The position numbers were made by a program, and so were the translations under genes. Shown in pieces: positions 8,965-54,172 of a stretch of 64,000 nt of DNA (positions are counted from its first letter, which is position 1; every line of letters starts with the position of its first letter). The notes under the pieces were generated by a model. It saw only the letters and a program-made list of their open reading frames with translations. It made no database searches and was not told the DNA's origin. This stretch comes from a virus, in IMG/VR virus record IMGVR_UViG_3300035670_000040, positions 66,821 through 130,820 of that record. One strand, written 5' to 3'.

Positions 8965-9351
8965 ATGATACAAAGACCAACAAACTTAGAAGACAAAATT
9001 GGTGGAATAGTTCAACTTGAACAATATCAGGGTCACGCACTGGAACTCGATGGATGGAAACTTACAAATGTATTGGACGATATATTAATGGTTCAATATA
9101 TAGATGTAAACGAAGACGGAACAGAAATAAAAAGAGGGTCTTTGTGGGTTCCTATAAATACAGTAACTTTTGTTTGGCGTGTAGGAAAGGTAATTTTAGC
9201 TGGTCCTAATTGCAAAACAGTTAAAGTTAATGATCACATTGTATTCCCTAATGATAAAGGAATACAAGCAGCTAACATAAATGATATTAAAAATATTGTT
9301 TTCTTAAGTGAAAGCAGAATTTTTGGTGTGTGTGAACCGAAGTTCACATAA
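8965..9351 (+). CDS. groES: GroES-like co-chaperonin (gp31 analogue)
   Basis: LDDILMV, KRGSLWVP mobile loop, GKVILAGP...VKVND.IVF, FLSESRIFG. TAAGTA 6 nt upstream. Confidence 0.85.
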   Translation: MIQRPTNLEDKIGGIVQLEQYQGHALELDGWKLTNVLDDILMVQYIDVNEDGTEIKRGSLWVPINTVTFVWRVGKVILAGPNCKTVKVNDHIVFPNDKGIQAANINDIKNIVFLSESRIFGVCEPKFT

Positions 9352-13193: not shown

Positions 13194-13651
13194 TCATTTG
13201 TTTCTAGCATAGAGACAAGATATCTTACTTTATTACATAAAGACAATAATTCTTCGATTAGATTGTTTATTCCATTAAATGTCGATTTGACAAAATCATT
13301 CATTTCATCGTTCTTTATTGTTTTTTCTAAATTTTCTATTATATAGAAAAGATCATCTATTTGACTAGCCAAACATTTTGAATCGTTTACATTTTTTAAA
13401 CTAACCTCTGGACAAGAGACTGAAAAACATATATTTTGACTATTGGATACTCCTATTATTTCTTCCATTAATGAATCAAATAAAGAATCAAAATCTTCAT
13501 AAAATTTACCAACAAGTTTGTGAAAATTATAATCCTTTGAATACCAATGAAGAATTTTAAATGAAGTTAGGATATTACAAAGATACAAAGAAAAGTCATT
13601 TATATTATTTTCTTTTATTGTCATATTTTGTGAAATGTATGTGTTTATCAT
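13151..13651 (-). CDS. Ferritin/Dps-like four-helix protein (DUF5856-like)
   Basis: KILHW...YNFHKLVGKFYE...DSLMEE...NLIEELL...KVRYL, a Dps-like HW...H...D..E pattern. Confidence 0.75.
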   Translation of the reverse strand: MINTYISQNMTIKENNINDFSLYLCNILTSFKILHWYSKDYNFHKLVGKFYEDFDSLFDSLMEEIIGVSNSQNICFSVSCPEVSLKNVNDSKCLASQIDDLFYIIENLEKTIKNDEMNDFVKSTFNGINNLIEELLSLCNKVRYLVSMLETNDQKTNLIPLKDIGI

Positions 13652-14064
13652 TTTTTCTTATATATTATTATTTTAAATATGTAATCATCAATTTCTGTTG
13701 ATGATTCACTTAATATTTTGTATTCTGGAATAGAAACATTCACTTCTTCCATAACAAGTTCTTTTATTTCTTCATCAGATTGAATTACAATATCATTCTT
13801 TGGTTCTTTTTCTTCTTCTTTTAAATCAAAATACTTTTGAAGATCTTGTAATTTTTTGTCATAATTTTCAAAAAAAACCTTCCAAAATGGAATTGGAAAA
13901 ATATAATTTAATGCTTGTCTTCTTTTATCACAAGAAAAACATATTTCTTCAGATCCAGTTATTAATTTTGTTACTGGTAATATAAATTTACTATGAAGGG
14001 TACACGCAATAAAATCACCTAACCCCTCAGAATGTCTATATTGTAGATAAGGATTCTTGTTCAT
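13648..14064 (-). CDS. Small GLGD...CxxC protein
   Basis: GLGDFIACTLH...ICFSCDKRRQALN; possible C/H/C/C metal site. Confidence 0.65.
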   Translation of the reverse strand: MNKNPYLQYRHSEGLGDFIACTLHSKFILPVTKLITGSEEICFSCDKRRQALNYIFPIPFWKVFFENYDKKLQDLQKYFDLKEEEKEPKNDIVIQSDEEIKELVMEEVNVSIPEYKILSESSTEIDDYIFKIIIYKKK

Positions 14065-14275
14065 TTAATTTTTCTATTTCTGGAGAAATCGGCCAAACAA
14101 CCTCATTAGGTACTCTATATGTCTTTGTTATATCTCTTAATTTTAATCTGTATTCTTTCCATTTACGTTTTTCTTCATCAGACATATCGACATCATCAAA
14201 TTGTGTCCAATCAGATTGTTTCAAAAAATAATTTCTTATTTCTCTTATTGTATTCCATGACATGGTATTATTCAT
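14036..14275 (-). CDS. Phage tail (fibre) assembly chaperone
   Basis: IREIRNYFLKQSDWTQFDD...WKEYRLKLRDIT...VVWP is the Phage_tail_APC signature. Confidence 0.85.
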   Translation of the reverse strand: MNNTMSWNTIREIRNYFLKQSDWTQFDDVDMSDEEKRKWKEYRLKLRDITKTYRVPNEVVWPISPEIEKLNEQESLSTI

Positions 14276-14276
14276 A

Positions 14277-14852
14277 TTATTGTGTTTCTATAAGCCAAAG
14301 ATCCGAATCAATCAGACATTGTGAAGTATTAACTGTTTGTGTAAATCTTGCACTTATTTTAAAATATCCAGAAGATTGAGGAATAAAAGGAGTTATGAAT
14401 AGACAATTATTATTAGTAATAGTACTAGGATGATTTGATATAATAAGGTTTTGGTTTTCAAAAATAGTTATATCATCTTTACCCTTTGCAGCAGGCTTCC
14501 AAACCAGATCAAATACACAAATAACACTATTTTCTATTGGTGAACCACTTGTTCTATTACATGATATTTGTAAAATTCCATAAACATTTTTTAAAGAGTC
14601 ATTAAATGTTATTAACTCATTTGCATCTGTTTTAATATCTAAAGTATTATTTTTTATTGTAACATCCACCTTTTTACTTGCATTATATACGGTATTTTTT
14701 ACAATCAAACCATTATGAATGTTCTTTTTTAAAACATCTAATGATACTCTTCCTTCAGGTGAAATTTTTTCTTTATTTCTATTAGTTATAAAAAAATCAT
14801 TCTTAGTTATACTGCTTCTTATCGGTAAATCTCCAAAAGTTTTATTAGCCAT
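14277..14852 (-). CDS. Short tail fibre/adhesin-like protein
   Basis: N-terminal KTFGDLP (KISELP-like) domain, beta-rich C-terminus; directly upstream of the chaperone. Confidence 0.55.
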   Translation of the reverse strand: MANKTFGDLPIRSSITKNDFFITNRNKEKISPEGRVSLDVLKKNIHNGLIVKNTVYNASKKVDVTIKNNTLDIKTDANELITFNDSLKNVYGILQISCNRTSGSPIENSVICVFDLVWKPAAKGKDDITIFENQNLIISNHPSTITNNNCLFITPFIPQSSGYFKISARFTQTVNTSQCLIDSDLWLIETQ

Positions 14853-14886
14853 AACATTATTTATTTTTAAAATACAAAAAACAAGT

Positions 14887-16347
14887 TTATCCTAAAAGAT
14901 AGGTATCTCCTTTTTTTGTTGTTAAAGTATCACCGGAATCTGTTAAGATAGTTGTAGGAAACTGTTTTATCTCAAAAACAGTTGGAACGGTTTTAGTATA
15001 TTTAGGAGCCTCGTCTACTGTTTTTATTGTTGTGTCTCCTTTTTTATAAGGTTTTCCTATAGAGGCATTCACAAATTCCCAAAAATTTTCTTTTTTTATT
15101 TTTGGTATAGAAGAATTTGGATTTTCAACAAACATTGTTTTTGTTTTTTTAATGTATTTTACCGTTACAATTTTTTCGATATATGTATCTTTTTTTGTAA
15201 ATTCTATATTAAATGTAGTATTTGAACTTGGTGCAATTAAATTCAATTCTCCTGATTTTATAATTTTAGTATCTTTTAAAGGTTTTATTAATTCTGGTTG
15301 TTCCCAATAATCGGTAACAATTTTTGCAGAAATACTATCATATCCAACCATATTATATAAAAAGAAAACAACATTTACAATAGTATCATCTTGATAATTT
15401 TTTGGATTATAATTTTTATTTAAAAATGTTAGAGCAAGATTATTTAATTTTGGATTGCTTAAATAACTTTCTAAAAATGAATCATTTATTTTTGTTATTT
15501 TTGACTTAAACTCGTTACTTTTGAATGTAATTATCTCTGATAATTTTTTAACAGTTGGTTTATATCTAGTAACATTTAATATTTGATTTGTATCAGACAA
15601 TTCTTTTTTTGTATCCACAGAATAAACTATTAAATTGTTATTATTTATATTGTTTTTATCAGAAACAAATGTTTTTCCAGAAACAGAATAACTTTTATTA
15701 TTAAAATCAGGAGTCAAATTTTTTGTTGATATACTAACATTTTTTGGAGCTATTATGCTATAATAAGGTATTCTATAAATATCAACTAAATTTCCATTTA
15801 GATAAAAGTTTCCGGCTATATCAATTGATAATGAAAAAAGAGAAGAATAATCAAATAAATCCCAAGAAATAAAATCACCAGAATTATCTCTTTTCACATA
15901 TATAATTTCTTTATTGGAAAGAGCATTTATTGCATCCGTTTTATTATCGTAAAGTTTATTAATAATTAATGCATCTGCTATTATATTTTTTTGTGTCTTT
16001 TCATCTGTAGAAGAATTTAAATTACCCAATTCACCAGCAGATACCAAAGTACTAACAAATCCATTAGTTGAATTAAATGGATAATTCACAGTAAACTCAA
16101 ATTTATTCCAATATGAACTTAGTAGAATAACTGTAGTTTCCATTTTTTCAAGAAAATCATAATTTATATCTTCTATTAAATCATCTAATTGAATCATTAA
16201 ATTTTCAAAATCATCTAAAAATTTTTCATTTTCAATTTTTTTACTTTGTAATTCACAATTTTCTAAATTAATATTTAAAAAATTATAGTTTATTTTTGAT
16301 AAACCATCACCAACATTATCTTCTAAACTTAAAGGAATTATATTCAT
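14887..16347 (-). CDS. Baseplate/fibre paralogue 3 (no Cys insert)
   Basis: DNVGDGLSKINYNF N-terminal motif, coiled coil, W...YP motif shared with the two upstream genes. Confidence 0.6.
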   Translation of the reverse strand: MNIIPLSLEDNVGDGLSKINYNFLNINLENCELQSKKIENEKFLDDFENLMIQLDDLIEDINYDFLEKMETTVILLSSYWNKFEFTVNYPFNSTNGFVSTLVSAGELGNLNSSTDEKTQKNIIADALIINKLYDNKTDAINALSNKEIIYVKRDNSGDFISWDLFDYSSLFSLSIDIAGNFYLNGNLVDIYRIPYYSIIAPKNVSISTKNLTPDFNNKSYSVSGKTFVSDKNNINNNNLIVYSVDTKKELSDTNQILNVTRYKPTVKKLSEIITFKSNEFKSKITKINDSFLESYLSNPKLNNLALTFLNKNYNPKNYQDDTIVNVVFFLYNMVGYDSISAKIVTDYWEQPELIKPLKDTKIIKSGELNLIAPSSNTTFNIEFTKKDTYIEKIVTVKYIKKTKTMFVENPNSSIPKIKKENFWEFVNASIGKPYKKGDTTIKTVDEAPKYTKTVPTVFEIKQFPTTILTDSGDTLTTKKGDTYLLG

Positions 16348-16349
16348 TT

Positions 16350-17114
16350 TTATGTTTTATCTACTTTCCAAATACAATCTTCTACTATAAATTTTACAAA
16401 TCCAAATTTGGTTTCAAAATATTCTTCAAATGATAATGATGTATTTGAATTTAAATATCTATTTGCTGTTTTACTTACAATATTATTATCTGAATAATTA
16501 CATGTTGCTGTTTCGGTAACTGAACAAGTAGCCTCTCCCGAACAATTTACACAACCACAACCATCAATACAAACACTTCCAGATCTCTTAGATACGCAGT
16601 TAACAGTAACATCTTTATCTGCTGTTTGGCATGGAATAGATGAAGTATTTAATTCTCCTTTTATATTCATAGTATCTTCTGCACATTTTATATAATATAT
16701 TATAGCTTTTTGACCCTCAATATAATTAGGATTAATTATTTTTTTTGGTTTTATTACATATGTGTTAGTAATCCAGTCGTGAATTATATTTTCTATATAA
16801 GTATTAGAAACTTGACGCAAATCATCTCTAAATTTTTCAGGATATATTGTTATTATAGGTTTTATATATTTGTCTTTATTATTTAAAATATCTTCCCATG
16901 TTTCCATATAAACAGGGTTTCTTTTTCTCATAAATTCATTAGCAAATTTTAATTTATCATAAATCAAAGAAATAGAATCTTTAAAATCATTAAATTCATT
17001 TAAAAAATCTTTTTGATTTTCTATTTGTGTTTTTAAAGAATTAAAAACATTATTTATTGTTTTAAGAGAGTTGCCAATATCTTGTGTTTTTTTTGGGAGA
17101 TTATATTTTTGCAT
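16350..17114 (-). CDS. Baseplate/fibre paralogue 2 with 8-Cys insert
   Basis: DIGNSLKTINNVF, coiled coil, PIITIYP, Cys-rich segment, C-terminal WKV. Confidence 0.6.
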   Translation of the reverse strand: MQKYNLPKKTQDIGNSLKTINNVFNSLKTQIENQKDFLNEFNDFKDSISLIYDKLKFANEFMRKRNPVYMETWEDILNNKDKYIKPIITIYPEKFRDDLRQVSNTYIENIIHDWITNTYVIKPKKIINPNYIEGQKAIIYYIKCAEDTMNIKGELNTSSIPCQTADKDVTVNCVSKRSGSVCIDGCGCVNCSGEATCSVTETATCNYSDNNIVSKTANRYLNSNTSLSFEEYFETKFGFVKFIVEDCIWKVDKT

Positions 17115-17117
17115 ATA

Positions 17118-17975
17118 TTAAACTCGTTTCCAACTATTGTTACTATTTATTGATAAATTAATCTTAGAATAACCAATAAAAAACTTGTCATTATTAAAAA
17201 TTATTTCTCTGGAAATCTTTAAATCCTGTCCTTTCCATAACTTTGGGTCTGTTCCAGATTTCCACCCTGAACAAGATCCAGTAGCACAATTTGAACTATG
17301 ATAGTACGCACCAGGACATCTTGAAAACATGTTTCCACAAACATGTTCGTCTTTTCCGCCCATTCTATTGCATGGCGCAAAACCACCAAAACCACACGGT
17401 TTACAGCAAACCTTGGTTGATTTCCCGCCTACTATGCATTTTTCATTATATGTTGCATTCATTTTATATTTTATAGGTATTTCTATATAAAAATAAATGC
17501 GTACTGATATATTTTTATATATACCATATTCATTTTCTGGAAATTTGCTATTAACCCAAGTTTCTATGTTATTAATAGTTTTTGCGGTTTCAACAGAATT
17601 AACCTCTGTTATTTCACCTGTTTTAATATTAAAAGACCCCCATTTTTCTATTGATAATATTTCTGGATAAAAAATCTCCATGGGAGTAGATATAACTGAC
17701 CATATATTTTTATATTGAGAATGTACTTGTTGAACATTTTCTAATGAAGAACTGAATTGAGAAACAAATGTCAAAAATTTTCTATATTTGTCTTTATTTT
17801 TCTCGTATTTGTCTTTTAAAATTTGAAACCTGTCAAATTGATCATTTGTCATTGCTAAATCATTAGAAAAAACATTAAAATTTTGAATGATAATATCAAA
17901 AGATTTATCTAAACAATAATCCTCAGATATTAATATCGCTTTCTGACAAGATGTATTTAAAAGATCAAAGTTCAT
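17118..17975 (-). CDS. Baseplate/fibre paralogue 1 with 9-Cys Gly-rich insert
   Basis: CLDKSFDIIIQNF, coiled coil, PMEIFYP, Cys-rich segment, C-terminal WKRV. Confidence 0.6.
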   Translation of the reverse strand: MNFDLLNTSCQKAILISEDYCLDKSFDIIIQNFNVFSNDLAMTNDQFDRFQILKDKYEKNKDKYRKFLTFVSQFSSSLENVQQVHSQYKNIWSVISTPMEIFYPEILSIEKWGSFNIKTGEITEVNSVETAKTINNIETWVNSKFPENEYGIYKNISVRIYFYIEIPIKYKMNATYNEKCIVGGKSTKVCCKPCGFGGFAPCNRMGGKDEHVCGNMFSRCPGAYYHSSNCATGSCSGWKSGTDPKLWKGQDLKISREIIFNNDKFFIGYSKINLSINSNNSWKRV

Positions 17976-20900
17976 AACCAGTTTATTTTATTTAAGAATG
18001 TATTATAAGGTGATATTGTGTTTATATTATTTTTTATTGATTCTTCTATTAATTTTTTAATTCTATTGGATACTTTTAAATTGTGTATATTAATGTTGTA
18101 ATAATTAGTTTTACTACCTGGTAATTGATACTTAAAGAAGTGACTTATTTTTTCTACATAATTCCTTTCACCAACACTGATATTCCAATTTAAATTATTT
18201 CTGTTTATAGATTTATTATTAGAAAAATATAATTGTTCTATTTCTGATGAATTAAAACTTTTATTGTAAATTCTTAAATCAGAAACTTTTCCTATAAATT
18301 TATATCCATCTTCTATACCAACTAAATCATTTAAAGATGTATTTTTTACTGTTGTTGCTCCTAATAATAGAGGAGATAAATATTCATAATAAATTAAACT
18401 GTTTTTTGAAATGTTTTTCTCATTTACTTTTATAGAATCTATATAAAAAACAACTTTTCCAGCTACTCCATCAAAAACCAAAGAAAAATTATGCCATTTA
18501 GGTGGCAATTGTGAAACATCATAATCTAAAGTTAAATTTTGAAAATTTTCTTTTAAATGATCCGATGTTTTAAGATTCCAACTTAATTTTTTTTCAGATG
18601 GATTTAAATATTTTCTTATATAATCAAATCCCGTAAAATCACCCTTTGCTGAAAATTTCCAATAAGTTTCAAATCTTATACTTTCATCTTGTATATATGT
18701 TCGTAAATCGGTTCTTTTTATTAATTGTCCAGATGTTTGAAAGAAATATAATTTAAAATTAATTGTATCAACCACACAAATAACATCATATAGTTGTTTT
18801 TGTAACTCTTTGCAGTTATTGAAAAATTCAGAAGCAGATGTTCTTATTATACCTATATGTGAATATGGATATGATTCATCCGTCATTTCATTTGTATTAA
18901 CAAAATCATCCAGCAATTTTTTATTAACATCAAATGAATCGGTTGTTGTATTATACTTTATAAGTGTATTGTCTTTAGTTATAAACCAAAGATTATTTTC
19001 ACTATCACATGTTATACTCTGACATTTACCAACATGTGCTTTTATTTGTTTATCTTTGTAATAATTACTATTTCCTCCAACATAGTTTGTGCATAGGTAT
19101 AAATTCTCTCCAACTATTTCCCATAAATTATCATTATTATCTATTATTGAGATATTAGAATCACATTTTACAAGATTTCCATTTGATCTAAAATCTATTC
19201 TTGGTTTGTTTATTCCTTCTGTTAAAGATACAAATTTTCCTAAAGAATTTAATTTTAACATTAAATTCTCTTCAGAATCAAGTATAACTAAATTCATGTC
19301 TTTATCTAATAAAATTTGATTTATACTTGTTATGGATTTTTTAATATTACGGTTATCTGTGTTTAATATTTTTCCATTACTATCAATTCTATATGCAACA
19401 AAATTTGAAATATCTATTAACCAATAACTAAAATCAGGAAGTCTTAAAACCCATTCAAAAAAAGAATTTTTTGGATTAATAAATCCTTCGCCTGATAGTT
19501 GATATGAATCAGTAAGACCAGATCTATAATTAATAGCATAAGATCTTTTACCATTGTTTTCCACTATTGTTAAAAGAGGTGATATCTGACCATTATTGTT
19601 TATTAATCCCCAACCACCATTATAATAATTTCCAAAAATCTGCCATCCATATATGTTTGACCAGTCATCAACATTTAACCAAAGAGATACAGTCATTCTT
19701 TGTGTTTCTAATAAATCTGATGTTGATGGAAATATTATATGATTAGAACCATATAGACTATATGAAGTTTTATCAGGTTGTGTTGTGTTTCTATTTATTA
19801 CAATACCATTGTTGTTATATTTAGATGAGTCTGTAGCTTCGTTGGAAGTCCATGTATTAATGTGTAATGTTTTAGATCCATATTTTGTTTCTGATGTATA
19901 ATCTAAATAATTAATAAACTCTTGTGAGCTTTTTATACCTTGTCTAAAGTATTTGTATCTTGCACCAGGTTCCAGAATAAGACTAGATTCAACATCATAA
20001 ATATATGGTTTAGATGGATCTAATCTTTCGTTATATTTAAGATAACCGCTAGATAAAGCCTCGTTTGTTGTTAGATATGCAGAATTATAATATCTATCCA
20101 TCCATTTCTTTGAACCGTTTTGTGACCCTTTTAACCAAGAACAAAGCCATGTACCAGTTTCTCTAAAAAAAGAAATGGGTTGTGATATTTCTGGAAGTGT
20201 GTTTTTGTAATTTACAGATAGACCATAAATTCTATCAGAAGTCAAAGGATGTTCACCAGCTATTGAACCAGATTCTATTAAATTAGATGAACTTAAAGGA
20301 ACTCTTTGTGATGCAGGAGAATATTGAAACTCGGTTTCCCTGTCTGGTCTAAGAACTAATTTAGTACTATTTGACGTGTATCCTAAATAAATATCATCGT
20401 ATCCATTTTCTTGATTTGAACCACTGTATATCTGCCAATATATTCTCCTTATGTAAGGATTGTCTTCAGCAAAATATGGACCTTTCACATAATCATATTC
20501 GGGATTTTGATAATTTTTAAGACCATTATAATCAGCAATATAAACAGCTTCATCATCAATTATTATAGGATTTTCTGTTGGAAACATCAAAAGAAAATTC
20601 TGTAAAAATGGTTTATTAAAAATACTAGAATCCTTATAGAGAGAATCTATGGGGTCTATTGGTTTATTATTATATTCTACAATTTTACTATCAACAATAT
20701 AGTCTTCATTAGAATTAATTTTATTATAACAATCTAATTTGAAAATTATCTCATTAGGTATTCTAAAAAATTGATCTTTCAAAGAAACAGAAGACAATAC
20801 TAAATTATTATTAGAGTTTAATGACAAACATTTTGATGCATTTGATCCAGCTAAAAACAATACAATTTCTCCACTATTACTTAAAAAATATTCAAACCTT

Positions 20901-21418
20901 TGTTTGTTTATTGCTGGAGTTGCTTTTGTTGTAAAAAACGTAGAATTGTCTAATTCAGAATTGCATTGTAAAATTTGACCTGATTGATCTTCTATATATA
21001 ATAGGTCTTTATTTTCTTTGTCTATAACAAAATTTAAAAGATCAACATCAGACAATTTTTTTCTTTCGGTTTTATTTATAATTTTTATATCTTTTTTACC
21101 TATTTTTACATTTAATGGAGTTAAAACAAATCCATCTTTATTAGAAATTGTAGTTTTTATTTCAGTTAACTCTGTTGAATCTTCTGGTTTACTTTTATTT
21201 TTAAAAATTTCAGAAGAAGATAATAAATCAGTTAAAAATAAACTAGTTTTATTATTGTTTTTATAATCCATTCCTTCTAATAAGAAGGCATGACCGTTAA
21301 AAACCATTCCATTATTAAAATAATATTTCTGATATATTGTTTCATAATGATTTCCTTGTAGTTCAAATTTTAAAGGATACCAATAAAATGCAGATGCGTT
21401 GTTATATATAGTAATCAT
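17972..21418 (-). CDS. Large virion protein with LamG/ConA-like domain and beta-propeller
   Basis: MTVSLWL...WHNFSLVFDG...FYIDS...FIGKVSDLRIYNK...EIEQLY (LamG); DNNDNLW and DSENNLW propeller blades. Confidence 0.75.
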   Translation of the reverse strand: MITIYNNASAFYWYPLKFELQGNHYETIYQKYYFNNGMVFNGHAFLLEGMDYKNNNKTSLFLTDLLSSSEIFKNKSKPEDSTELTEIKTTISNKDGFVLTPLNVKIGKKDIKIINKTERKKLSDVDLLNFVIDKENKDLLYIEDQSGQILQCNSELDNSTFFTTKATPAINKQRFEYFLSNSGEIVLFLAGSNASKCLSLNSNNNLVLSSVSLKDQFFRIPNEIIFKLDCYNKINSNEDYIVDSKIVEYNNKPIDPIDSLYKDSSIFNKPFLQNFLLMFPTENPIIIDDEAVYIADYNGLKNYQNPEYDYVKGPYFAEDNPYIRRIYWQIYSGSNQENGYDDIYLGYTSNSTKLVLRPDRETEFQYSPASQRVPLSSSNLIESGSIAGEHPLTSDRIYGLSVNYKNTLPEISQPISFFRETGTWLCSWLKGSQNGSKKWMDRYYNSAYLTTNEALSSGYLKYNERLDPSKPYIYDVESSLILEPGARYKYFRQGIKSSQEFINYLDYTSETKYGSKTLHINTWTSNEATDSSKYNNNGIVINRNTTQPDKTSYSLYGSNHIIFPSTSDLLETQRMTVSLWLNVDDWSNIYGWQIFGNYYNGGWGLINNNGQISPLLTIVENNGKRSYAINYRSGLTDSYQLSGEGFINPKNSFFEWVLRLPDFSYWLIDISNFVAYRIDSNGKILNTDNRNIKKSITSINQILLDKDMNLVILDSEENLMLKLNSLGKFVSLTEGINKPRIDFRSNGNLVKCDSNISIIDNNDNLWEIVGENLYLCTNYVGGNSNYYKDKQIKAHVGKCQSITCDSENNLWFITKDNTLIKYNTTTDSFDVNKKLLDDFVNTNEMTDESYPYSHIGIIRTSASEFFNNCKELQKQLYDVICVVDTINFKLYFFQTSGQLIKRTDLRTYIQDESIRFETYWKFSAKGDFTGFDYIRKYLNPSEKKLSWNLKTSDHLKENFQNLTLDYDVSQLPPKWHNFSLVFDGVAGKVVFYIDSIKVNEKNISKNSLIYYEYLSPLLLGATTVKNTSLNDLVGIEDGYKFIGKVSDLRIYNKSFNSSEIEQLYFSNNKSINRNNLNWNISVGERNYVEKISHFFKYQLPGSKTNYYNINIHNLKVSNRIKKLIEESIKNNINTISPYNTFLNKINWL

Positions 21419-22200
21419 TATAAATCTAAATCTATTGTTAATTTTTTCTGAATAATGGATTCATAGTCAACATCTGTTGTATCTTGGAATGGAAAAAATG
21501 CATTTATTGAATTAACATTCAAATTTTGGTCTTTAAGTACATTTATACTAACAAGACCAAATTCATTATTTGGTCCTCTGCATATATGTGATATATTAAA
21601 TGTTTTAGTAAATCTATTATATGACAACTTTAAAGGTTCAACAATAGGTAATATTTTGTAAAAATTCTTAATATTAAAATTAAAAAACACTTTAAAATAA
21701 TATTTTACATCTAAAACAGAAGAGTTCATATCAAACTCTTCTATTATATATCCAAGTTTTAATCCATTTAAATTTTCATATTCTTCTATCTTATTGGTTA
21801 CTATATATATTTTTTTATTATTTTCATCAAAATAATAATCAGGAAAGGTTAATCTTTTTGAAAGTAAAGACGTAGTAAAATTATTGTCTTGATTTCTTGG
21901 TAAAATTTTATTATTTTCTACTACTATTTGATCAAATATATTTCCTCTAGGTGTTTCAACAAATAAAACATCTTGAATCATATCAAATCTTAAAAAGAAA
22001 TTTCCTTCCATTAAATCCTGATAAATAGTTCTTCCAGAAGAATCTTGTTCTGATAGTTCTGATGAAACATTTTTATATTTTAAAAACACTTCAGACAAAG
22101 CTTCTTGTGCAGGAACTATTGAATTATTAGGTGTTCTGACCCATAATTCTCCTTCCTGTCTATTTTTTTCGTAAAAAGTTAATGAAAAATATTTTCCCAT
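21418..22200 (-). CDS. Hypothetical structural protein
   Basis: 260-aa ORF coupled within the baseplate block. Confidence 0.7.
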   Translation of the reverse strand: MGKYFSLTFYEKNRQEGELWVRTPNNSIVPAQEALSEVFLKYKNVSSELSEQDSSGRTIYQDLMEGNFFLRFDMIQDVLFVETPRGNIFDQIVVENNKILPRNQDNNFTTSLLSKRLTFPDYYFDENNKKIYIVTNKIEEYENLNGLKLGYIIEEFDMNSSVLDVKYYFKVFFNFNIKNFYKILPIVEPLKLSYNRFTKTFNISHICRGPNNEFGLVSINVLKDQNLNVNSINAFFPFQDTTDVDYESIIQKKLTIDLDL

Positions 22201-24968: not shown

Positions 24969-24997
24969 TTAATATACTATTTATAATTACTGTAAAA

Positions 24998-35794: not shown

Positions 35795-37600
35795 TTAAAA
35801 TTGTGTTGCTTCTATTGTTGATGGTTCTTTATAAATTTCTATTTGAGAACCTATGTTTGAAAGGTTGTTGAATATAGGAAACTTAAATTCATCTAAAAAT
35901 ACATTTTGTGTATAAACCTTTTTATCATTGTCTGGATAATAAAAATTCCATGCTAGTAAACTAACACCATCTGTGTATGAATTTGTTTTTTTATTATAAG
36001 TTTTAATATCTTCAACATCATCAAGAGCGAGTATGGATGATGTTATTCTATTAATATCAATATATTGACCTAGTTTAGAGTTTTCTGGTAAAAACTGATC
36101 TTTAAAAACATCAGCAATTTGATTTATTATCATAGAATCAGAAAGAGTGGATGTTCTAGATTTAAAAACTCTTAAAATTGTTGGAGTAAGATCGTTTAAT
36201 GATATTTCAGTACCTGCCTTTGGAGGAACAAAAAAATCAAACATGATATATACGGGATCTGTTGCTACAAGTTCTGTTGTAACAATTTTCCAAGGTTCAA
36301 GTCCATTAATCATTAATTCTTTTTGTGGCGGATTTAAAAATGATTGATTTGATGTTTTTGGAACAGCACAAATATAAAGATTATTAAAATTACAAGCATT
36401 CGAGAATTTAACCTGATTAAATAAAATATTAAATTCTTTATGAGGATTTTTAAGACCTATATCATAAAAATATTTCATATATTTCATTAAATAATCATTA
36501 TTGTTTAATATTTTTACATCTCTTATAAAATTTGAATAATTATTTTTTATATAAGATTCGTAGTCTCGTTTTGTTGCTAATCTGTATTGAGATCTAAAAG
36601 ATTGCGGTGCATTTTTTCTTATTTCATCAACAGATTCTTCTTGTTTAAAATCGGTTGATGGAAATGCATTATTTATAAAAATGTTTCTAAGTTGAGAAGG
36701 TTCTAAATAATTTGCATTAACAGAATTTGTATCATCTAAAACATTAGAAAATAAAACAGAATTAAATCTAACAACGAATTGATTTCCCAATCCACCAGAT
36801 CCAATAGAAACATCATCTGGATTTATTCTTAAATAATAAACCAAAACTTCATCTCCTGTATTTAATTTTTTACCATTTATATCATTACCAAATGTTATTT
36901 CGTATCTCTTATTTTCATTATATCTTATTTCATAAACAGTTTCATTTGAAGTATGAAGAAATAATTCATTTACAGGAGAATATTTAACCCATTGATTTGA
37001 GTTTCTTTCTCTTACATATACATCGATACTATAATGATCAATAAACATTGATTCATCCAAACTCAAAAATAAACTTTCATTATCAAATCCTAATGCAGTA
37101 TAAACAGGATATTCTTCATATATACCTTGTTTTAATAAAACATTATCATTCAATGCTGTTATTAATTCATTCACACCTTCATTAAGTTTTGTAAAAAAAG
37201 TATCCTTTGTAAAAGAAAATGCACTACCACCAACATTAACATAACTATATCTAGGAATTGTGTAATTGTTTGCTGGAATAGACAACCCAGCAATTATTCT
37301 TACAGGAACAACTGAAGCTGTTTTACCTATTGGTTTATATCCCAAAATCTTAACTATTTTATTCATGTTCTCATAAAGTTGAGCTTCAGAAAACATACTT
37401 TCAGATGAAGTTTTATTTAAATAAAATAAAAGATTACCAAAAACAAGACTTATAACATCTATTAAAGCAGAAAGATTTGACCCTTGATAGTTTTGATCAG
37501 TAAAAACCTTTCCTTTGTTTAATCTGTCAATTATCAATGACTTTAAGCTCAAGGCATCAAAGTTTAAGTATGTATTTTTATCAAAATATATTTCGTTCAT
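35795..37600 (-). CDS. gp6: Baseplate wedge subunit, gp6-like
   Basis: FTDQNYQGSNLSALID, LGYKP, FGNDINGK, ESVDEIRKNAP...QYRLATKRDY. Confidence 0.92.
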   Translation of the reverse strand: MNEIYFDKNTYLNFDALSLKSLIIDRLNKGKVFTDQNYQGSNLSALIDVISLVFGNLLFYLNKTSSESMFSEAQLYENMNKIVKILGYKPIGKTASVVPVRIIAGLSIPANNYTIPRYSYVNVGGSAFSFTKDTFFTKLNEGVNELITALNDNVLLKQGIYEEYPVYTALGFDNESLFLSLDESMFIDHYSIDVYVRERNSNQWVKYSPVNELFLHTSNETVYEIRYNENKRYEITFGNDINGKKLNTGDEVLVYYLRINPDDVSIGSGGLGNQFVVRFNSVLFSNVLDDTNSVNANYLEPSQLRNIFINNAFPSTDFKQEESVDEIRKNAPQSFRSQYRLATKRDYESYIKNNYSNFIRDVKILNNNDYLMKYMKYFYDIGLKNPHKEFNILFNQVKFSNACNFNNLYICAVPKTSNQSFLNPPQKELMINGLEPWKIVTTELVATDPVYIMFDFFVPPKAGTEISLNDLTPTILRVFKSRTSTLSDSMIINQIADVFKDQFLPENSKLGQYIDINRITSSILALDDVEDIKTYNKKTNSYTDGVSLLAWNFYYPDNDKKVYTQNVFLDEFKFPIFNNLSNIGSQIEIYKEPSTIEATQF

Positions 37601-37605
37601 ATTTA

Positions 37606-38109
37606 TTATTTAGAATCTTGCACGTTGGATTTTAATACTATATCAGTAGATGTTTGTTTGTTTAAACTAGGTATGTCATAAAAAACAGAAATTCTGTAAA
37701 TATTTTCGTCAAATAGAACATTAACAAGTATCTTTGAGATATTTATTCTTTTTTCTAAACCAGATAATCTATTTAACACATATCTACCTATATAATCACC
37801 GTTTGTTTCACTCATTGGTTCAAACAAAAATTTATCTAAATTCATACCAAAATTTGGATCAAGAACTTTTTCGTTTGGTTTTGTATTAATACAATTAAAT
37901 ATAGAATTTGCTATTGCTGATTCGTCAAAAGAAACCTTAATATCATTAGATACACCTGACTTTAATCTAGTTCCAACAGCAACAGACATTTTTATATCCA
38001 AATGTAAATCGGTATAAGTAATATCATCATAAGTATCTTCGGATACTTTTGTTTGTTGTGTATTAACCTGTTTTGGTTTTATTATGTTATCTAAACGAAC
38101 TGTAGCCAT
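37606..38109 (-). CDS. gp25: Baseplate wedge subunit/sheath initiator, gp25-like
   Basis: YTDL, DESAIANSIFN...TKPNEK...PNFGMNL...LFEP...EKRI. Confidence 0.9.
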   Translation of the reverse strand: MATVRLDNIIKPKQVNTQQTKVSEDTYDDITYTDLHLDIKMSVAVGTRLKSGVSNDIKVSFDESAIANSIFNCINTKPNEKVLDPNFGMNLDKFLFEPMSETNGDYIGRYVLNRLSGLEKRINISKILVNVLFDENIYRISVFYDIPSLNKQTSTDIVLKSNVQDSK

Positions 38110-41550: not shown

Positions 41551-43002
41551 ATGGAAATTATTAAAAATTGTGCATGTGGATGTGGAGAAATATTAAAAAA
41601 CCCAAAAAACAAATATGTAGTAGGTCATTCAAACAGAGATCCAGAAGTAAAAGCTAAAAAAGAAAAAGCTTATTTGGAAAAATATGGCGTAACAAATCCT
41701 AGCAAATCCAAAGATATTAAAACTAAAAAAGAAGAAACCAATTTAAAAAAATTTGGAACAAAATATGCAGCACAAAGTATAGATGTAAAAAACAAATTAA
41801 AAGAAAAATGGTTAGAAAAGTATGGAGTAGATAATCCTTCAAAATTAGATCACATCAAAACTTTAATTTCAGAAAAAGTAAAAGCTACAAGAGAAGAGGT
41901 AAGAGAAAAATCACAGAAATCATTTTATAAAACTATCCTAAATAGGTTAAAAGAAGAAGGGAAAATGGGAACATTAGAACCTTTGTTTGATATAGATGAT
42001 TATCAAGGAAGACTTTTAAAATACCCATTTAAATGTAGTGTTTGTTCAACTGTATCAGAAACCAATTTAAGATTATCATCAGAATCATTGAGATGTTTTA
42101 CATGTAACCCAAAGATAACAACAGGGGGACAATCTTTATTAGAAAGAGATATATGTGATTTTGTAAAAATATTAGATCCAGATATTAAAGAACAAAATAG
42201 AGATATTATATCACCATTAGAATTAGATATAGTTTCAGAAAAATATAAATTAGCAATAGAAATAGATGGATTATATTGGCATTCTGAAATAACAGGAAGA
42301 AAAACAAAATTCTATCATTCACTAAAAAGAAAAAATACCAATAATAGTGGATATAAATTAATACAAATATTTGAGGATGAATGGATAGAAAAACAAAAAA
42401 TTGTAAAATCCAGAATTAAAAATTTATTTAATAAGAACCTTAAAAAAATATATGCTAGAAAATGCGTAGTTAAAGAAATATCATCAGAAATTAAATCTAA
42501 ATTTCTAAAAAAATACCATATACAAGGAAATGATAAATCTAATTTACACTTAGGTTTATTTTATAAAAATAGATTGGTGTCTGTTATGACATTTAATCCT
42601 TATAGAGTTGCACTAGGAAACAAAGCAAAAGAAAATTGTTATGAATTAACTAGGTTTTGTTCAAACTTTAACTTCTCTGTCATTGGTGGTGCATCAAAAA
42701 TATTAAAATATTTTGAAACTAAATATAATCCAAAAGAAATAATTTCTTATGCTGATAAAAGATGGTCAGATGGAAATCTTTATAAAATACTAGGATTTAA
42801 TTTAGTAGGAGAAACTCAACCTAATTATTGGTATATCATAAAAAACCAAAGAAAACATAGATTTGCTTACAGAAAATCTGAACTATCAAAGTTGTTAAAG
42901 ACATATGATGGAAATCTATCAGAATGGCAAAATATGCAACTAAATGGATATGATAGAATATGGGATTGTGGAAGTTTTAAGTTTGAAAAAACTTATACAT
43001 AG
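41551..43002 (+). mobile_element. Free-standing Hef-like homing endonuclease gene
   Basis: CACGCG, repeated LEKYGVxNPS units, CxxC...CxxC ribbon, ELDI...LAIEIDGLYWH (Vsr/DUF559-like), C-terminal IYARKC...YELTRFC...GGASK...SYAD...IWDCG domain; antiparallel to gene 23. Confidence 0.8.
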
Positions 43003-43007
43003 AAAAT

Positions 43008-43044
43008 AAAAAACCCGTTGATATTTCTATCAACGGGTTTTTTT
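43008..43044. terminator. Bidirectional intrinsic terminator between gp23 and the endonuclease
   Basis: AAAAAACCCGTTGATA-TTTC-TATCAACGGGTTTTTT. Confidence 0.92.
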
Positions 43045-43059
43045 GAGGATTCTATCAAC

Positions 43060-44502
43060 TTAGAGATAGAGACGACCAGCAGTTTGAGCAACATTGTCGG
43101 TACCAAGTCCCTTAACGATGATAAGGTGGTAGTATAAGCTCGCACCGAAGATATGATCAACAACACCATATCTAGTCATAAGACCAACTCTTGGGGAGAA
43201 GTCGTTAGGACCGATAGTGCGCTGAATCATAACCGGAATATACGGACAATATACAATACCTGTATCATAATATTCAGAACCTTTGTAACCTAAAAGTGCA
43301 TACTCAATTGCATCAGCTTGGCTTCTTGCGCCAGCAAGGAGTTGAGCTTCGGTACGAGTATCACGGTAGATGGTGAAACGTCCACCAACAGTACCAACCT
43401 TGGCAATACCAGTAGGTTGAGTGTTGACGTTGCCGTTTACAGGCATCCATTGAAACTCTGGTAACATCTCCAAGATTGTGCAAACGCGAGGAGTGGCAAC
43501 GATGAAGTTGGCAGATCCACGGCGGTTACGAATTGCGATGCGGTTAGCCTCGACAATAATCTTGCTGTAGAAGTCACGGTTGCGTTCGCCAAGCCAACGG
43601 GCATCAGCGGAAGCAGCGTACCAGAAACTATATCCATTACCTTTACCTGCATTAAGAGCGATCTGGACCATTCTCATGATCATTTCACGGTCGATTTCGG
43701 CCTGAATTTCATACGACATAGCGTTTGTTAATTCAGAATCAACATCGAGTCCGTTCATGTTCTTCATGTCCTGCTCAAGTTCAACAGACCAGCGAGCAGC
43801 AAGACGACGAGTCTTAGCTTCAACAGCTGTTTTAGCGAACTCAAGAGAAACTTGAGGAATATTTCCAGTTAACTCAAACTGACTTAAAAGTTGAGCAACA
43901 CCTTGATCTTCGGAGACGTACTTGAAGTCGTCATGACCGGAGAGGAATGCACCACTAGTGCCAGTAAAGCGGGTATCAAGGTTTTGATAACCAAGTTCAC
44001 CACCGTTATTTTGGCGTGGAACGCCATCATTTCCGACGGTTTGTGGTCCAAGTGAGCCGTATCCGTCAACACCTGTTCCACCTAAACTTGCGGTATCATA
44101 CTTGTAACGCATAGCGAATGCCAAACCAACTGGACCAGCCATTGGCTGAACACCGACGATTTCGTTAGTGATAAGCTCAGGGAATGTACGACGAACCATT
44201 GGTATTAATACCTTTGGAAGTCTTGCATCACCTGTTGCATAACTATCACTGTTAGAAAGACCAGTCTGACCAGGTGCACTTCCACCGTAAACACCACCGA
44301 GAACTCCTGCGGTATTTCCAGCTTCTTCAATGCACCAACGCTCTTGGTTTTCCATGAGAATAGCCGTAGCGAGACGAGAATGCTCGTCTTCGATAGGCTT
44401 CACACGATCTGAACTATAGTTCAAAACGGGTGCCCATTTCTCTAAGAGAGTGTTAGCACGACCTTTGTCGATAAATCCTGTTGAGGGTTTGATTGTATTC
44501 AT
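43060..44502 (-). CDS. gp23: Major capsid protein, gp23-like
   Basis: LLEKWAPVL, LMENQ, VGVQPMAGPVGLAFAMR, AKTRRLAARWSVELEQD, EIQAEIDRE, YCPYIP, PRVGLMTRYG. Confidence 0.98.
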   Translation of the reverse strand: MNTIKPSTGFIDKGRANTLLEKWAPVLNYSSDRVKPIEDEHSRLATAILMENQERWCIEEAGNTAGVLGGVYGGSAPGQTGLSNSDSYATGDARLPKVLIPMVRRTFPELITNEIVGVQPMAGPVGLAFAMRYKYDTASLGGTGVDGYGSLGPQTVGNDGVPRQNNGGELGYQNLDTRFTGTSGAFLSGHDDFKYVSEDQGVAQLLSQFELTGNIPQVSLEFAKTAVEAKTRRLAARWSVELEQDMKNMNGLDVDSELTNAMSYEIQAEIDREMIMRMVQIALNAGKGNGYSFWYAASADARWLGERNRDFYSKIIVEANRIAIRNRRGSANFIVATPRVCTILEMLPEFQWMPVNGNVNTQPTGIAKVGTVGGRFTIYRDTRTEAQLLAGARSQADAIEYALLGYKGSEYYDTGIVYCPYIPVMIQRTIGPNDFSPRVGLMTRYGVVDHIFGASLYYHLIIVKGLGTDNVAQTAGRLYL

Positions 44503-44586
44503 ATGTTTTTTATTTTACCTTTCTTTTTTTTGGATTATGTTTTTCTAGAAAAGAACCATTCTCTTCTACAACTTTAAATCTTTTTT

Positions 44587-45474
44587 TTATGATCTTTTGA
44601 GTTCTGTTAAATAATCAGTTACAGGGTTATAATCCTGTAAATTTGGTTTTACAGATTCAACTACTAATGAAGGAACTTTTGCATCTTTTGATACAGATTT
44701 TGTCTTTGCTTGTTCAGCAAGAACTGTTCTTTCTTCGTTTTCGTCTTTCTCAAACATATCAACAACATAATTGAAATTTTCTTCAATATATTCTGGAGAT
44801 TTGTCACATAAAATTTTTCTTAAATATTCCTTTTTGGATGAACCCATTCCTTTTGTTTTCTTTTCAAGAAGAAGTGCTGAATTTGATTGTTCTACAAGTG
44901 TAGAAAGTTTAGCATTTTCATTGTAGGATTCATTTAGTTTTTCTTGAAGTTCATTAATTTGATTATTTCCTTTTTTAAGAACTTCTTTTACATTTTCATT
45001 TAATTGTTCAGGATCAAGATTAAGCATGTTCTTGATTTTTTCCAATTGAGTCCTTGCGTGTGTATTTGCAACAGCTTCTTCTAATTGTTGAACTGGCATT
45101 TGTTTTTCTAAATAAAGATCCAGATAATTGCTAATTTGATTAATTAAATTATTACTAAATTGTTCAGCTTTTTCATTCAAAGAATTTTTATAAAGGTCTA
45201 TAACTTCTTCAAGCTTTGTTGTATGGTTTTCATTGATTGCTTCAACTACTTGCTTTAACTTATTGGTGTGATCAAGATCCAATGCTTCTATTAAGTTCTG
45301 AAGTTTTTCTGCGTGTTCTTCATCTTGTTTTAAAAGAGCAGATTCTAATTGTAAAGAAACTTTTGTTTCTACCTTTTCATTTACCGCTTTGTTAAAAGCT
45401 TCTGCAATTGCGGAAGCGGTTTCTTCATTAAGAACGGTTTGATCCAAATTTTTGAGAATCGATGAAATATCCAT
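44587..45474 (-). CDS. gp22: Prohead core scaffolding protein, gp22-like
   Basis: Coiled coil, AFNKAV, NYLD, many LNE sites; directly before gp23. Confidence 0.85.
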   Translation of the reverse strand: MDISSILKNLDQTVLNEETASAIAEAFNKAVNEKVETKVSLQLESALLKQDEEHAEKLQNLIEALDLDHTNKLKQVVEAINENHTTKLEEVIDLYKNSLNEKAEQFSNNLINQISNYLDLYLEKQMPVQQLEEAVANTHARTQLEKIKNMLNLDPEQLNENVKEVLKKGNNQINELQEKLNESYNENAKLSTLVEQSNSALLLEKKTKGMGSSKKEYLRKILCDKSPEYIEENFNYVVDMFEKDENEERTVLAEQAKTKSVSKDAKVPSLVVESVKPNLQDYNPVTDYLTELKRS

Positions 45475-45487
45475 AAGTTATATAATT

Positions 45488-45706
45488 TTATTTACCTTTC
45501 TTTGATACAGTTTTGTTATTTTTTTTACAGTCACTACAATGTTTTTTCTTTTTTTTACAATCATCACAGCAATATTCTTTTTCTTTAACTATTTTTTTTA
45601 CCTTTTGTTTTACCTTTTCTGTCAAAATAGTTTTCAATAGAGAATCCGCTAAAGAATAATTTTTTTCACAAATAGCTGTTATAAATTTTGAAATGTCATT
45701 TCTCAT
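45488..45706 (-). CDS. Small prohead core protein (gp67/68-like) with Cys/Lys-rich tail
   Basis: FITAICEKNYSLA...; CCDDC...HCSDC; position between gp21 and gp22. Confidence 0.55.
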   Translation of the reverse strand: MRNDISKFITAICEKNYSLADSLLKTILTEKVKQKVKKIVKEKEYCCDDCKKKKKHCSDCKKNNKTVSKKGK

Positions 45707-45716
45707 ATTTTAATAC

Positions 45717-46388
45717 TTACAAAGTTTTGAGTGCATTAATAAACGCAATTACTTGTTCTTTTAAATATTGATTTTTATTGTTTCTTGGAAGATTACCAAT
45801 ATTTTTTTCAAATCTTTCAAACAATGGTTCAAAATTTCCATTTTCAGTTAAAATCCATTGTTTTGATTCAAGAATACCATTAACAAATGCTGTTGGAACG
45901 GATGGATCAGCAACAACATCAACAGCAACAAGTCTAAAGTCTGAAACTTTATTGTATTGACCATCTGAATCAAGTCTTCCTAATGCTCTAGAAGAAACAC
46001 CTAATTTAACTCCATCAAGAATAAGTGATCTAACAATTTGTCCCATAGGGGTAGAAAGAATTCTGGATTTTCCTTCAAATATATTTCCGTTTTGTTTTAA
46101 TTCTGTCACCATATGACAGATTCTTTCTAGATTTATTTCTGGCGAGGAAGGATGGTTTAATTCTCCTGTAGACCTTTTTCCTAAAATCATCTCGTTAGAA
46201 TATCTATCGACCTCTTTAACCATTTCTTCCAATGGATAAATTCTTTTGTTTTTGTTAGCTTCATTAGCCATCAAAAATGGACCATGAATAAATAAATTAG
46301 AAGGAGAGTTCCTGTTTTTTTCTTCAACTAAATATTGAACTTCATATGTTGGTTCTTCAACTAAAAGTCGATAGGCGTTATTCTGCAT
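45717..46388 (-). CDS. gp21: Prohead protease, gp21-like
   Basis: NKNKRIYP, GELNHP, ILSTPMG, LGVSSRALG, DVVADPS. Confidence 0.96.
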   Translation of the reverse strand: MQNNAYRLLVEEPTYEVQYLVEEKNRNSPSNLFIHGPFLMANEANKNKRIYPLEEMVKEVDRYSNEMILGKRSTGELNHPSSPEINLERICHMVTELKQNGNIFEGKSRILSTPMGQIVRSLILDGVKLGVSSRALGRLDSDGQYNKVSDFRLVAVDVVADPSVPTAFVNGILESKQWILTENGNFEPLFERFEKNIGNLPRNNKNQYLKEQVIAFINALKTL

Positions 46389-46411
46389 AATATATTATAT
46401 TATTATTTACA

Positions 46412-46882
46412 CTAGTTAAGTGTAATTTCATTCTCAGTTAGTATTAAAAATAAAAAATTATTTTTTTCGCACCATTTTTTTGCTGCATTAAACTTAGCTG
46501 TATTTGTAGCATATTGAACATTTTCATATATTGTTGTCTTCTGTGACTTTTTATTAGAAGGAATAGGAGGTTGTGTTTGTTTAAATGGTTTTACTTCTAT
46601 TAAAACTTTTTTTATACTACCATCTTTCTGTTTTATACTAGCTACCATATCAACAAAATATCTATGTAATTTATTATCAAGAGGAGAAATGTACGGAATA
46701 ACAACAGATTCAGAACCCCATGTTAATACATTTGAATTGTTATCTAGCATTCTCATTGCATTAAGTTCCATTTTAGATCTATATATAATAGGAAGAGTTC
46801 CTTTATATTTTGATGGATTTAGTGGTCTAAATCTACCTTGTTTATAATTTGTATTTTTTTTAATTAATTGAGGTTTTATCAT
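46412..46882 (-). CDS. gp4: Head completion nuclease, gp4-like
   Basis: QGRFRPLNPSKYKG, YRS, WGSE, HRYFVD, IEVKP, N.AK..AA, ILTE. Confidence 0.92.
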   Translation of the reverse strand: MIKPQLIKKNTNYKQGRFRPLNPSKYKGTLPIIYRSKMELNAMRMLDNNSNVLTWGSESVVIPYISPLDNKLHRYFVDMVASIKQKDGSIKKVLIEVKPFKQTQPPIPSNKKSQKTTIYENVQYATNTAKFNAAKKWCEKNNFLFLILTENEITLN

Positions 46883-47778: not shown

Positions 47779-47788
47779 ATTATATTAC

Positions 47789-51199: not shown

Positions 51200-51200
51200 G

Positions 51201-52307: not shown

Positions 52308-52330
52308 CTGTTTTTATTTATCTTTAAAAT

Positions 52331-52522
52331 TTAAATATGTTTACGAGATTTTATGTTTTTCTTTTTTAAACGTTTAATCATAGATTTTTCTTTTAATTGA
52401 ATTTGATCACAATCTGAAACATTTTCTTCCTCTTCTTCTTGTTTGTTTATTTCAGAAGATTTAAAATTAGTTTTTTTTATAACTACATCAAAAATGTTTT
52501 TAATACTTTTCCACATATTCAT
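52331..52522 (-). CDS. Small charged hypothetical protein
   Basis: ~61-63 aa, with its own TAAATA upstream. Confidence 0.5.
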   Translation of the reverse strand: MNMWKSIKNIFDVVIKKTNFKSSEINKQEEEEENVSDCDQIQLKEKSMIKRLKKKNIKSRKHI

Positions 52523-52547
52523 ATATTTAGCTTATTAAATTTTAGTT

Positions 52548-52589
52548 AAAAAAAACTCTAGAATGGAATTAGACCATTCTAGAGTTTTT
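52548..52589 (-). terminator. Intrinsic terminator (likely bidirectional)
   Basis: AAAAACTCTAGAATGG-7 nt-CCATTCTAGAGTTTTT with A/T tracts. Confidence 0.88.
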
Positions 52590-52618
52590 GTTTTAAGTTT
52601 TAATATTTAAAACTTTTT

Positions 52619-53752: not shown

Positions 53753-53806
53753 AGGCAATAATACTTATTCAATCAAATGGACAATTTAAAAAAAAATGAA
53801 TAGTTT

Positions 53807-54148: not shown

Positions 54149-54172
54149 TTTTTAATTAATTATTAGTTGTAT

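Follow-up and report, generated by a model that had tools for sequence, protein, structure and literature searches.

Three anciently diverged paralogues of an uncultured T4-like phage, two of them with cysteine ladders, as candidate chains of one mixed tail-fibre tip

Three neighbouring genes of an uncultured virus, encoding the proteins P0003, P0002 and P0001 (positions 1, 2 and 3, together the trio), raise the question of whether their products, two of which carry dense runs of cysteine (Cys), are versions of one protein and what they would build together. The genes lie in a stretch of 64,000 nucleotides (nt), the window, which is the second half of the 130,820-bp linear virus record IMGVR_UViG_3300035670_000040 (GC 28%, CheckV completeness 61%). 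The window carries a T4-like myovirus marker (Gp23 match, 3.4e-91), further T4-like genes of the virus are gp15, gp25, gp6 and a clamp loader, and the major capsid protein shares at most 33-35% identity with those of cultured phages, the best of which are cyanophages. We propose, at about an even chance, that the trio goes back to an old triplication and that its products, one chain each, make up a single tip of this T4-like myovirus, either at the distal end of a tail fibre or at the baseplate periphery.

Pairwise BLASTP among the three proteins returned nothing significant (E >= 0.1), and the family hidden Markov models (HMMs), run against the 541 open reading frames (ORFs) of the genome, gave no cross-matches within the trio. 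Shallow profile-profile comparisons gave 30% (P 5.5e-4) for one pair, 18% (P 1.3e-3) for another and nothing for the third. A search of 1.84 billion representative proteins with the P0002-family profile found 101 matches at E <= 1e-3, 64 of them at E <= 1e-10, and these matches together with close relatives made up a deep P0002-family profile of 109 aligned sequences. Against this profile hhalign placed the P0003 family at 97.1% (E 4.7e-11, 233 columns), with residues 17-285 of P0003 on 9-252 of P0002, which is nearly the full length of both, and the P0001 family at 95.0% (E 3.7e-8), with residues 1-160 of P0001 on 3-150 of P0002; a weaker collinear match takes in the F...P..Y...hhY block of P0001. 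Moreover, intermediate sequences were matched by two or three of the family HMMs, and the position-1 ORFs of distant loci scored alike with the P0002- and P0003-family HMMs (2.5e-21 and 2.8e-20 in L009, for example). By this sequence evidence the three proteins are homologous, paralogues built on one frame, a relationship that only profiles reveal.

Each chain has an N-terminal cap, about 70 residues of unbroken 3-4 heptad pattern and a beta frame. The cap motifs of the trio (DNVGDGLSKINYNF, QDIGNSLKTINNVF and CLDKSFDIIIQNF) follow the consensus IGDSLxxINxNY, the YP strands read FTVNYPF, IITIYPE and MEIFYPE, the W/F...P..Y...hhY block and the terminal W-K/E-x-V are also present, and all these motifs are invariant or nearly so inside the family of each protein. 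P0001 has a single Cys, C31, and its residues 93-299 form an insert, since the 519-aa (amino acid) relative P0048 matches P0001 at 9-92 (E 4e-16) and 300-333 (E 5e-5) with its own residues 13-101 and 121-154, between which only about 20 residues lie. Another relative of P0001, the 778-aa P0044, carries a low-complexity insertion of about 290 residues, rich in K, E, R, N and Q and with a poly-Gly end, just before the conserved C-terminal tail. AlphaFold2 (AF2) models of the monomers, made from shallow alignments, were poor: the predicted local distance difference test (pLDDT) was 48 for P0002 and 60 for P0003, the latter being confident at 97-178 and 250-285 only and of low confidence over the Cys region. 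The initial annotation of this locus had described three paralogues with a common frame, of which the third lacks a Cys ladder and bears an insert of about 200 aa elsewhere; the profile comparisons confirm the kinship, P0048 bears out a 207-aa insert, and the motifs, Cys counts, Cys spacing and coordinates were all found as described.

In P0002 and P0003, whose Cys regions are listed in Table 1, Cys makes up 3.9% of the residues, vs 1.13% across the 130.8-kb record when ORFs of 80 aa or more are counted. In P0002 the eight Cys are spaced C162-x10-C173-x8-C182-x3-C186-x-C188-x2-C191-x5-C197-x7-C205, and six of them (C162, C173, C186, C191, C197 and C205) are paired by hhalign with C180, C191, C202, C213, C220 and C235 of P0003. 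These regions had been regarded as swappable inserts, a description we cannot uphold, as the two are homologous to each other with the six core Cys aligned. The expectation that the Cys would be conserved in homologues, on the other hand, proved right: in the P0002 family (n=109) positions 162, 173, 186, 191, 197 and 205 hold Cys in 102, 105, 98, 100, 90 and 100 sequences and C247 is kept in 98, and in the position-1 family all six core Cys are present in 33/33 distinct sequences, along with C21 in 33 and C10 in 32. About eight representatives are without the entire ladder and keep the N-terminal frame. Where a core Cys is lost, the position holds F, L, S, Y, T, V, I, W, K or G instead; His appears only at 247, in two sequences.

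The optional Cys come in pairs. Both 170 and 200 of P0002 are Cys in 34 sequences and only one of them in none, both 182 and 188 in 17 sequences and only one in none, and for 190 and 230 of P0003 the figures are 13 and none; these counts are shared among relatives and are not independent events. Further, the paired positions of P0002 are mirror-symmetric (170+200 = 173+197 = 182+188 = 370), and a constant sum of this kind is, as far as sequence can tell, the register of an antiparallel hairpin. We therefore favour nested disulfides in a hairpin because the optional Cys occur only as pairs, and the two Cys regions would then be long hairpins with nested disulfide rungs. No thioredoxin or glutaredoxin, and no radical SAM enzyme, which the initial annotation had suggested seeking, was found in the 130.8-kb record, which is 61% complete.

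The trio is a constant unit across many viruses. A scan of viral contigs with the cap motif led to 25 loci, 20 of which have P0003-like, P0002-like and P0001-like ORFs in that order; among the other five, one runs off its contig after the second gene, L012 is otherwise arranged and three hold no family member. The close loci L001-L005 each have all three genes, and L006 (39% identity) is cut by the contig end after the second. Copy number is constant among the trio loci, with one gene of each kind in fixed order down to about 20% identity, and lengths vary from 212 to 536 aa at position 3 and from 244 to 541 aa at position 2. Scans for loci with P0058 and P0053 gave no confirmed locus, and the pattern PNYVE...AIVY gave no locus. 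The caps differ by position: those of position 1 have C-x10-C ahead of the motif, those of position 2 have IGDSL and no Cys, and those of position 3 mostly have C-VGDS plus a second Cys 20 residues on. In a maximum-likelihood tree of the first ~115 residues (47 rows: 15, 15 and 13 by position and four of L012) each position needs one change only, with support of 91/91 (position 1), 99/96 (position 2) and 97/88 (position 3). By these sequences, every gene position forms its own conserved group of orthologues across a wide phage lineage, and as each lies on one side of a branch, the triplication predates the divergence of all these phages. The four frame-family paralogues of L012 (472, 486, 355 and 402 aa; L012:2054-9214, plus strand) are interleaved with a 656-aa ORF and do not form a trio; each has C...C around the cap motif, two contain Kelch motifs, and they fall next to position 3 on the tree.

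A structure prediction of the mixed three-chain assembly, the only assembly modelled, was made with P0003 (alignment A2), P0001 residues 1-460 (A4) and P0002 as the partner (A5, 83 rows). The interaction prediction score from aligned errors (ipSAE) was 0.75, 0.73 and 0.72 (median 0.73), vs 0.01 for the best of three controls; the mark used for this score is reached by 116/157 solved complexes and 2/215 mismatched pairs and is only a rough guide for a run with its own alignments and three chains. The pLDDT was 80-81 for the partner and 76-79 for the other chains, and contacts agreed between runs by at least 90%. The predicted interface residues have unbroken 3-4 spacing over ~70 residues in all three helices, which in the model is the signature of a three-stranded coiled coil, and beyond the helices the interface takes in the YP strands, the Cys regions of P0002 and P0003 and the strands at the C-terminus. 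The complex model thus supports binding of the three chains to one another.

Relatives of the third paralogue link the trio to host recognition. Four of the ten position-3 relatives scanned contain the GP38 domain (PF05268, 32.5-44.1 bits vs a cut-off of 25), with the match in L028 covering profile positions 11-216 of 218, another three contain Gly_rich_2, and three have neither. P0048 matches PHROG families annotated as "tail fiber protein" (5.4e-14) and "tail fiber protein; host specificity" (8.2e-6), and the position-2 relative P0053 carries Gly_rich_2 (8.8e-18). Within the trio itself GP38 gave no match at E <= 0.01 and Gly_rich_2 is absent, and the Gly-rich Cys region of P0003 aligns with the Cys ladder of P0002 and is not a polyglycine sandwich match. 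In T2/S16-type phages Gp38 is a monomeric adhesin that docks on the tip of trimeric Gp37 (PMC12032242). The GP38 and glycine-rich domains on the third paralogue would place the complex at the fibre tip, with the C-terminal side of the frame facing the host. The suggestion of a receptor-binding tip in the initial annotation gains support from these C-terminal fusions in 7/10 relatives, and its suggestion of a heterotrimer from the ipSAE of the prediction and from the strict one-of-each, fixed-order inheritance.

Putting these observations together, we propose that the chains would assemble 1:1:1 into a pseudo-threefold heterotrimer, in which a three-stranded coiled-coil stalk would attach to the virion and carry an interdigitated beta head. 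The Cys hairpins would be stapled by nested disulfides into a cystine ladder, formed once the particle is in oxic water, which would stiffen the tip. Such a heterotrimer would put exactly one monomeric adhesin on a three-chain fibre, the same outcome as in T2/S16-type phages, which dock a separate monomeric Gp38 on trimeric Gp37. In the phage of the window, the 207-residue insert and the short tail of P0001 would take the place of the adhesin domain, and host binding may also gain from a 191-aa protein specific to the clade, together with its chaperone. A bolder version, which we put forward tentatively and hold to be somewhat short of even, is that the heterotrimeric tip is obligate and widespread in uncultured T4-like phages, its chains having had separate roles since the ancient triplication (two cystine-ladder needle chains and a third with a single monomeric Gp38-type adhesin), and that the C/H-knuckle and ferritin-like proteins encoded nearby are dedicated assembly or redox helpers.

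The arrangement of the trio also recalls a system of another stoichiometry. In T4, gp10, gp11 and gp12 are encoded by sequential genes on one polycistronic mRNA, share a core of a helix, a 3-stranded sheet and a 2-3-stranded sheet with large inserted loops, and are all homotrimers that interact at the baseplate periphery (PMC3004832). The trio likewise comprises three sequential genes in a late structural block after gp6, closing the gp25-gp6 baseplate block at the same end in one minus-strand run, and its members have nearly erased mutual similarity and a common core, probably of a helix and beta sheets, with big loops or domains inserted at differing places. Three separate homotrimers, side by side at the baseplate periphery and interacting in series, would fit the position-specific conservation equally well. 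We nevertheless consider them rather unlikely and a mixed trimer about evenly balanced, the latter being favoured because the genes are inherited one of each, because the caps differ by position and because only one chain bears a monomer-type adhesin domain, which suits a single copy per tip better. In addition, the mixed prediction (0.73 vs 0.01) gathers all helices into one heptad-spaced bundle, where the T4 proteins form homotrimers, and no Pfam match to the gp9/10, gp11 and gp12 families and no fold match to these proteins was obtained with the trio. A further possibility is that the three are alternative receptor-binding homotrimers that dock by a shared cap at equivalent sites and provide several host specificities. 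Exchangeable phage receptor-binding proteins usually have a conserved N-terminus and a variable distal part, and the C-terminal parts of the trio families do differ in length at positions 3 and 2 over the ranges given above; yet there is always one of each in the same order to ~20% identity, the caps are position-specific and not interchangeable, and positions 1 and 2 are conserved in length and Cys core, unlike fast-evolving specificity modules, which makes this possibility highly improbable.

The disulfides of the proposed mixed tip compete with metal as the purpose of the Cys clusters, which might bind zinc, iron or an iron-sulfur cluster, with the downstream C/H and ferritin-like DUF5856 proteins helping in loading. 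In a subgroup of 34 sequences there are two C-x2-C pairs (170/173 and 197/200), the Cys totals of the trio are often odd, the C/H protein and DUF5856 follow the trio in 21/21 loci that extend to them, and zinc lies on the axis of T4 gp12, metals being reported to stabilise T4 fibre proteins (PMC3004832). Zinc is held there via His, and T4 is not known to have a Cys ladder; in the trio families core Cys almost never change to His, Asp or Glu. The joint coming and going of Cys 170 and 200 while 173 and 197 stay is better explained by the addition of a disulfide rung than by one half of a site with four ligands, chain 3 gives no Cys, so that an axial site would miss one third of its ligands, and constant synteny in one viral lineage is no proof of a functional link. 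Metal binding is, in our view, clearly unlikely as the role of these regions.

Several points weigh against the proposed tip of three mixed chains. The Cys total of the trio is even in only 11/16 distinct complete trios (8/13 with near-identical ones merged), so that some Cys must lie outside any disulfide. A complex prediction may also be passed by cousins of a true partner, the chains of the trio are cousins, and the prediction covered the mixed trimer only; the rise in pLDDT from 48 and 60 in the AF2 monomers to ~80 in the complex is not like for like, as program and alignment depth differ. The P0001 of the window itself showed no adhesin domain in the Pfam scan, and no cultured relative was found by megablast with 14000-22000 of the window or by tblastn with P0003, P0058, P0076 and the 1148-aa protein.

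PHROG and Pfam scans of P0001, P0002 and P0003, and of the 83 members of A5, gave no real match, PDB sequence searches with alignments A2, A3 and A4 and with P0048 gave nothing or coiled-coil noise, no structural match to the family was found among solved and BFVD-predicted structures, and the ESM Atlas gave no usable match for P0003. The relatives of the family are all named "hypothetical protein", and in the literature on triplicated baseplate genes, heterotrimeric fibres and Gp38, which was searched by these subjects and not by the motifs of the family, the family is undescribed. Triplicated peripheral tail proteins, fibre-tip adhesins and disulfides in tails are already known; what is new is their combination, in which two chains have a putative cystine-ladder hairpin, the third is fused to a Gp38-type domain in relatives, and the trimer is likely mixed.

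Three known systems come close to the mixed trimer proposed here. The virophage DSLV2 has three consecutive collar-domain tail proteins that were predicted, and then co-purified, as a heterotrimer (PMC12724248); as there, the trio consists of three consecutive paralogous genes, the proteins of the same position are the closest to each other, prediction would favour a heterotrimer and the place would be a receptor-binding fibre tip, and the positional orthology of DSLV2-type genes is found in the trio as well. The collar domain PF07484 of the virophage proteins is absent from P0001, P0002, P0003 and the 83 members of A5. With the Gp38/Gp37 pair of T2/T6/S16-type Straboviridae the trio would share one adhesin per three fibre chains, but the adhesin of the trio relatives is fused to one fibre chain and that of Straboviridae docks separately; moreover, the trio frame is not the Gp38 attachment domain, as the GP38 match begins after the frame. 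Agrobacterium phage Milano is reported to have a disulfide-stabilised tail with a network that prevents tail contraction (PMC10811340). Cys cross-links in tail proteins assembled in the cytoplasm are thus on record, and high Cys density is not unheard of; the Cys of the trio differ from those of Milano in that they would sit in a short hairpin stretch of two tip proteins and that their disulfides are putative.

The genes around the trio (Table 1) differ in how far they accompany it. The ORFs of the trio are separated by gaps of 2-3 nt, and the stop of the 1148-aa gene overlaps the start of P0003 by 4 nt. A homologue of this lectin-domain protein lies directly upstream in 27/27 trio loci. Downstream, the 138-aa protein and then DUF5856 follow in all 21 loci that reach far enough, the other 6 of the 27 ending before these genes. 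The 138-aa protein has no known family in the Pfam scan and shares 34-39% identity with its counterparts in four distant loci; C21, H24, C42 and C45 are invariant (C-x2-H ... C-x2-C), as are GLGD..AC.LH and PC..CS.R..ALN..PIP.W across loci, and its C/H motif is likely a metal-binding knuckle. The DUF5856 gene matches PF19174 (1.4e-9) and phrog_858 (7e-12), members of PHROG 858 are annotated as starvation-inducible regulator, and the protein is probably Dps/ferritin-like. The Phage_tail_APC chaperone (PF16778, 3.2e-16, 59.4 bits vs a cut-off of 26.6; phrog_4912, 3.4e-18) occurs only in the near clade of the window, in 4/21 loci with downstream sequence. Homologues of the 191-aa protein, which has no Pfam or PHROG match, were found only in L001, L002, L003 and L005, and distant loci carry an unrelated small gene at the site of these two. 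Of the downstream module of chaperone, CxxC and ferritin genes suspected in the initial annotation, the CxxC and ferritin-like members therefore hold across loci and the chaperone does not. Constant synteny in one viral lineage is, even for the constant neighbours, no proof that they act on the trio.

As for expression signals, the count of sigma-70-like sites is no higher than chance, and TATAAATA, which we take to be the T4 late-promoter consensus, occurs 23 times in the window vs 22.9 expected, which is chance. One copy at 24978-24985 (minus) stands ~10 nt 5' of the start of the 710-aa gene, in the sole sizeable gap of the tail block. Elsewhere in the window, a 483-aa ORF (41551-43002, plus) beside the major capsid gene (43060-44502, minus) has DUF7487, a Mom-family region and a REase_MTES_1575 region and has a homing endonuclease as its PHROG match (2e-117); the ORF is likely to encode a mobile endonuclease that inserted next to gp23. 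The GC of the head-gene region (42000-56000) is 30-36%, vs ~25% in the tail block, and a 128-aa ORF (8965-9351, plus) shows a weak GroES/Cpn10 match (PHROG 1e-6; Pfam 9.7e-4, below the cut-off).

Table 1. The trio and the tail gene block around it, in window coordinates
Feature	Position	Strand	Remarks
gp25	37606-38109	minus	
gp6	35795-37600	minus	
Six ORFs of 1438, 1533, 614, 710, 209 and 260 aa	between gp6 and the lectin protein	minus	
1148-aa protein	17972-21418	minus	C-terminal concanavalin-A-like lectin domain; Laminin_G_3 2e-7
P0003, position-1 paralogue, 285 aa	17118-17975	minus	C10/C21 pair, cap, long heptad helix, YP strand, W helix, beta frame, Cys ladder, terminal WKRV
P0003 Cys ladder	17271-17438	minus	residues 180-235; 9 Cys and 10 Gly in 56 residues
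P0002, position-2 paralogue, 254 aa	16350-17114	minus	IGNSL..IN..F cap, heptad helix, YP strand, W helix, beta frame, Cys ladder, C247-I-W-K end
P0002 Cys ladder	16500-16631	minus	residues 162-205; 8 Cys in 44 aa
P0001, position-3 paralogue, 486 aa	14887-16347	minus	cap, heptad helix, YP strand, 207-aa insert, frame, W423-E-F-V, 60-aa tail; no Cys ladder
P0001 insert	15451-16071	minus	residues 93-299; between YP strand and F...P..Y...hhY block
191-aa protein	14277-14852	minus	no known family
Phage_tail_APC tail-fibre assembly chaperone, 79 aa	14036-14275	minus	PF16778, phrog_4912
138-aa Cys/His protein	13648-14064	minus	
DUF5856 protein, 166 aa	13151-13651	minus	PF19174, phrog_858; last gene of the block

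Outside the enterobacterial group, T4-like phages have, to our knowledge, outer baseplate and fibre proteins that carry no annotation, and the trio offers a first handle on that region, with at least 101 representatives at 50% identity, a fixed three-gene architecture and a link to host-recognition domains. From the strictly paired Cys one can draw a disulfide map, open to testing, of a small hairpin module suited to production in the laboratory. Should the mixed trimer prove true, it would be a second, independent fibre tip made from triplicated genes after that of virophage DSLV2 and would show how a monomeric adhesin is mounted on a three-chain fibre; and if the heterotrimer is obligate, gene triplication, not docking, would be what solves the three-to-one symmetry mismatch between fibre and adhesin in these phages.

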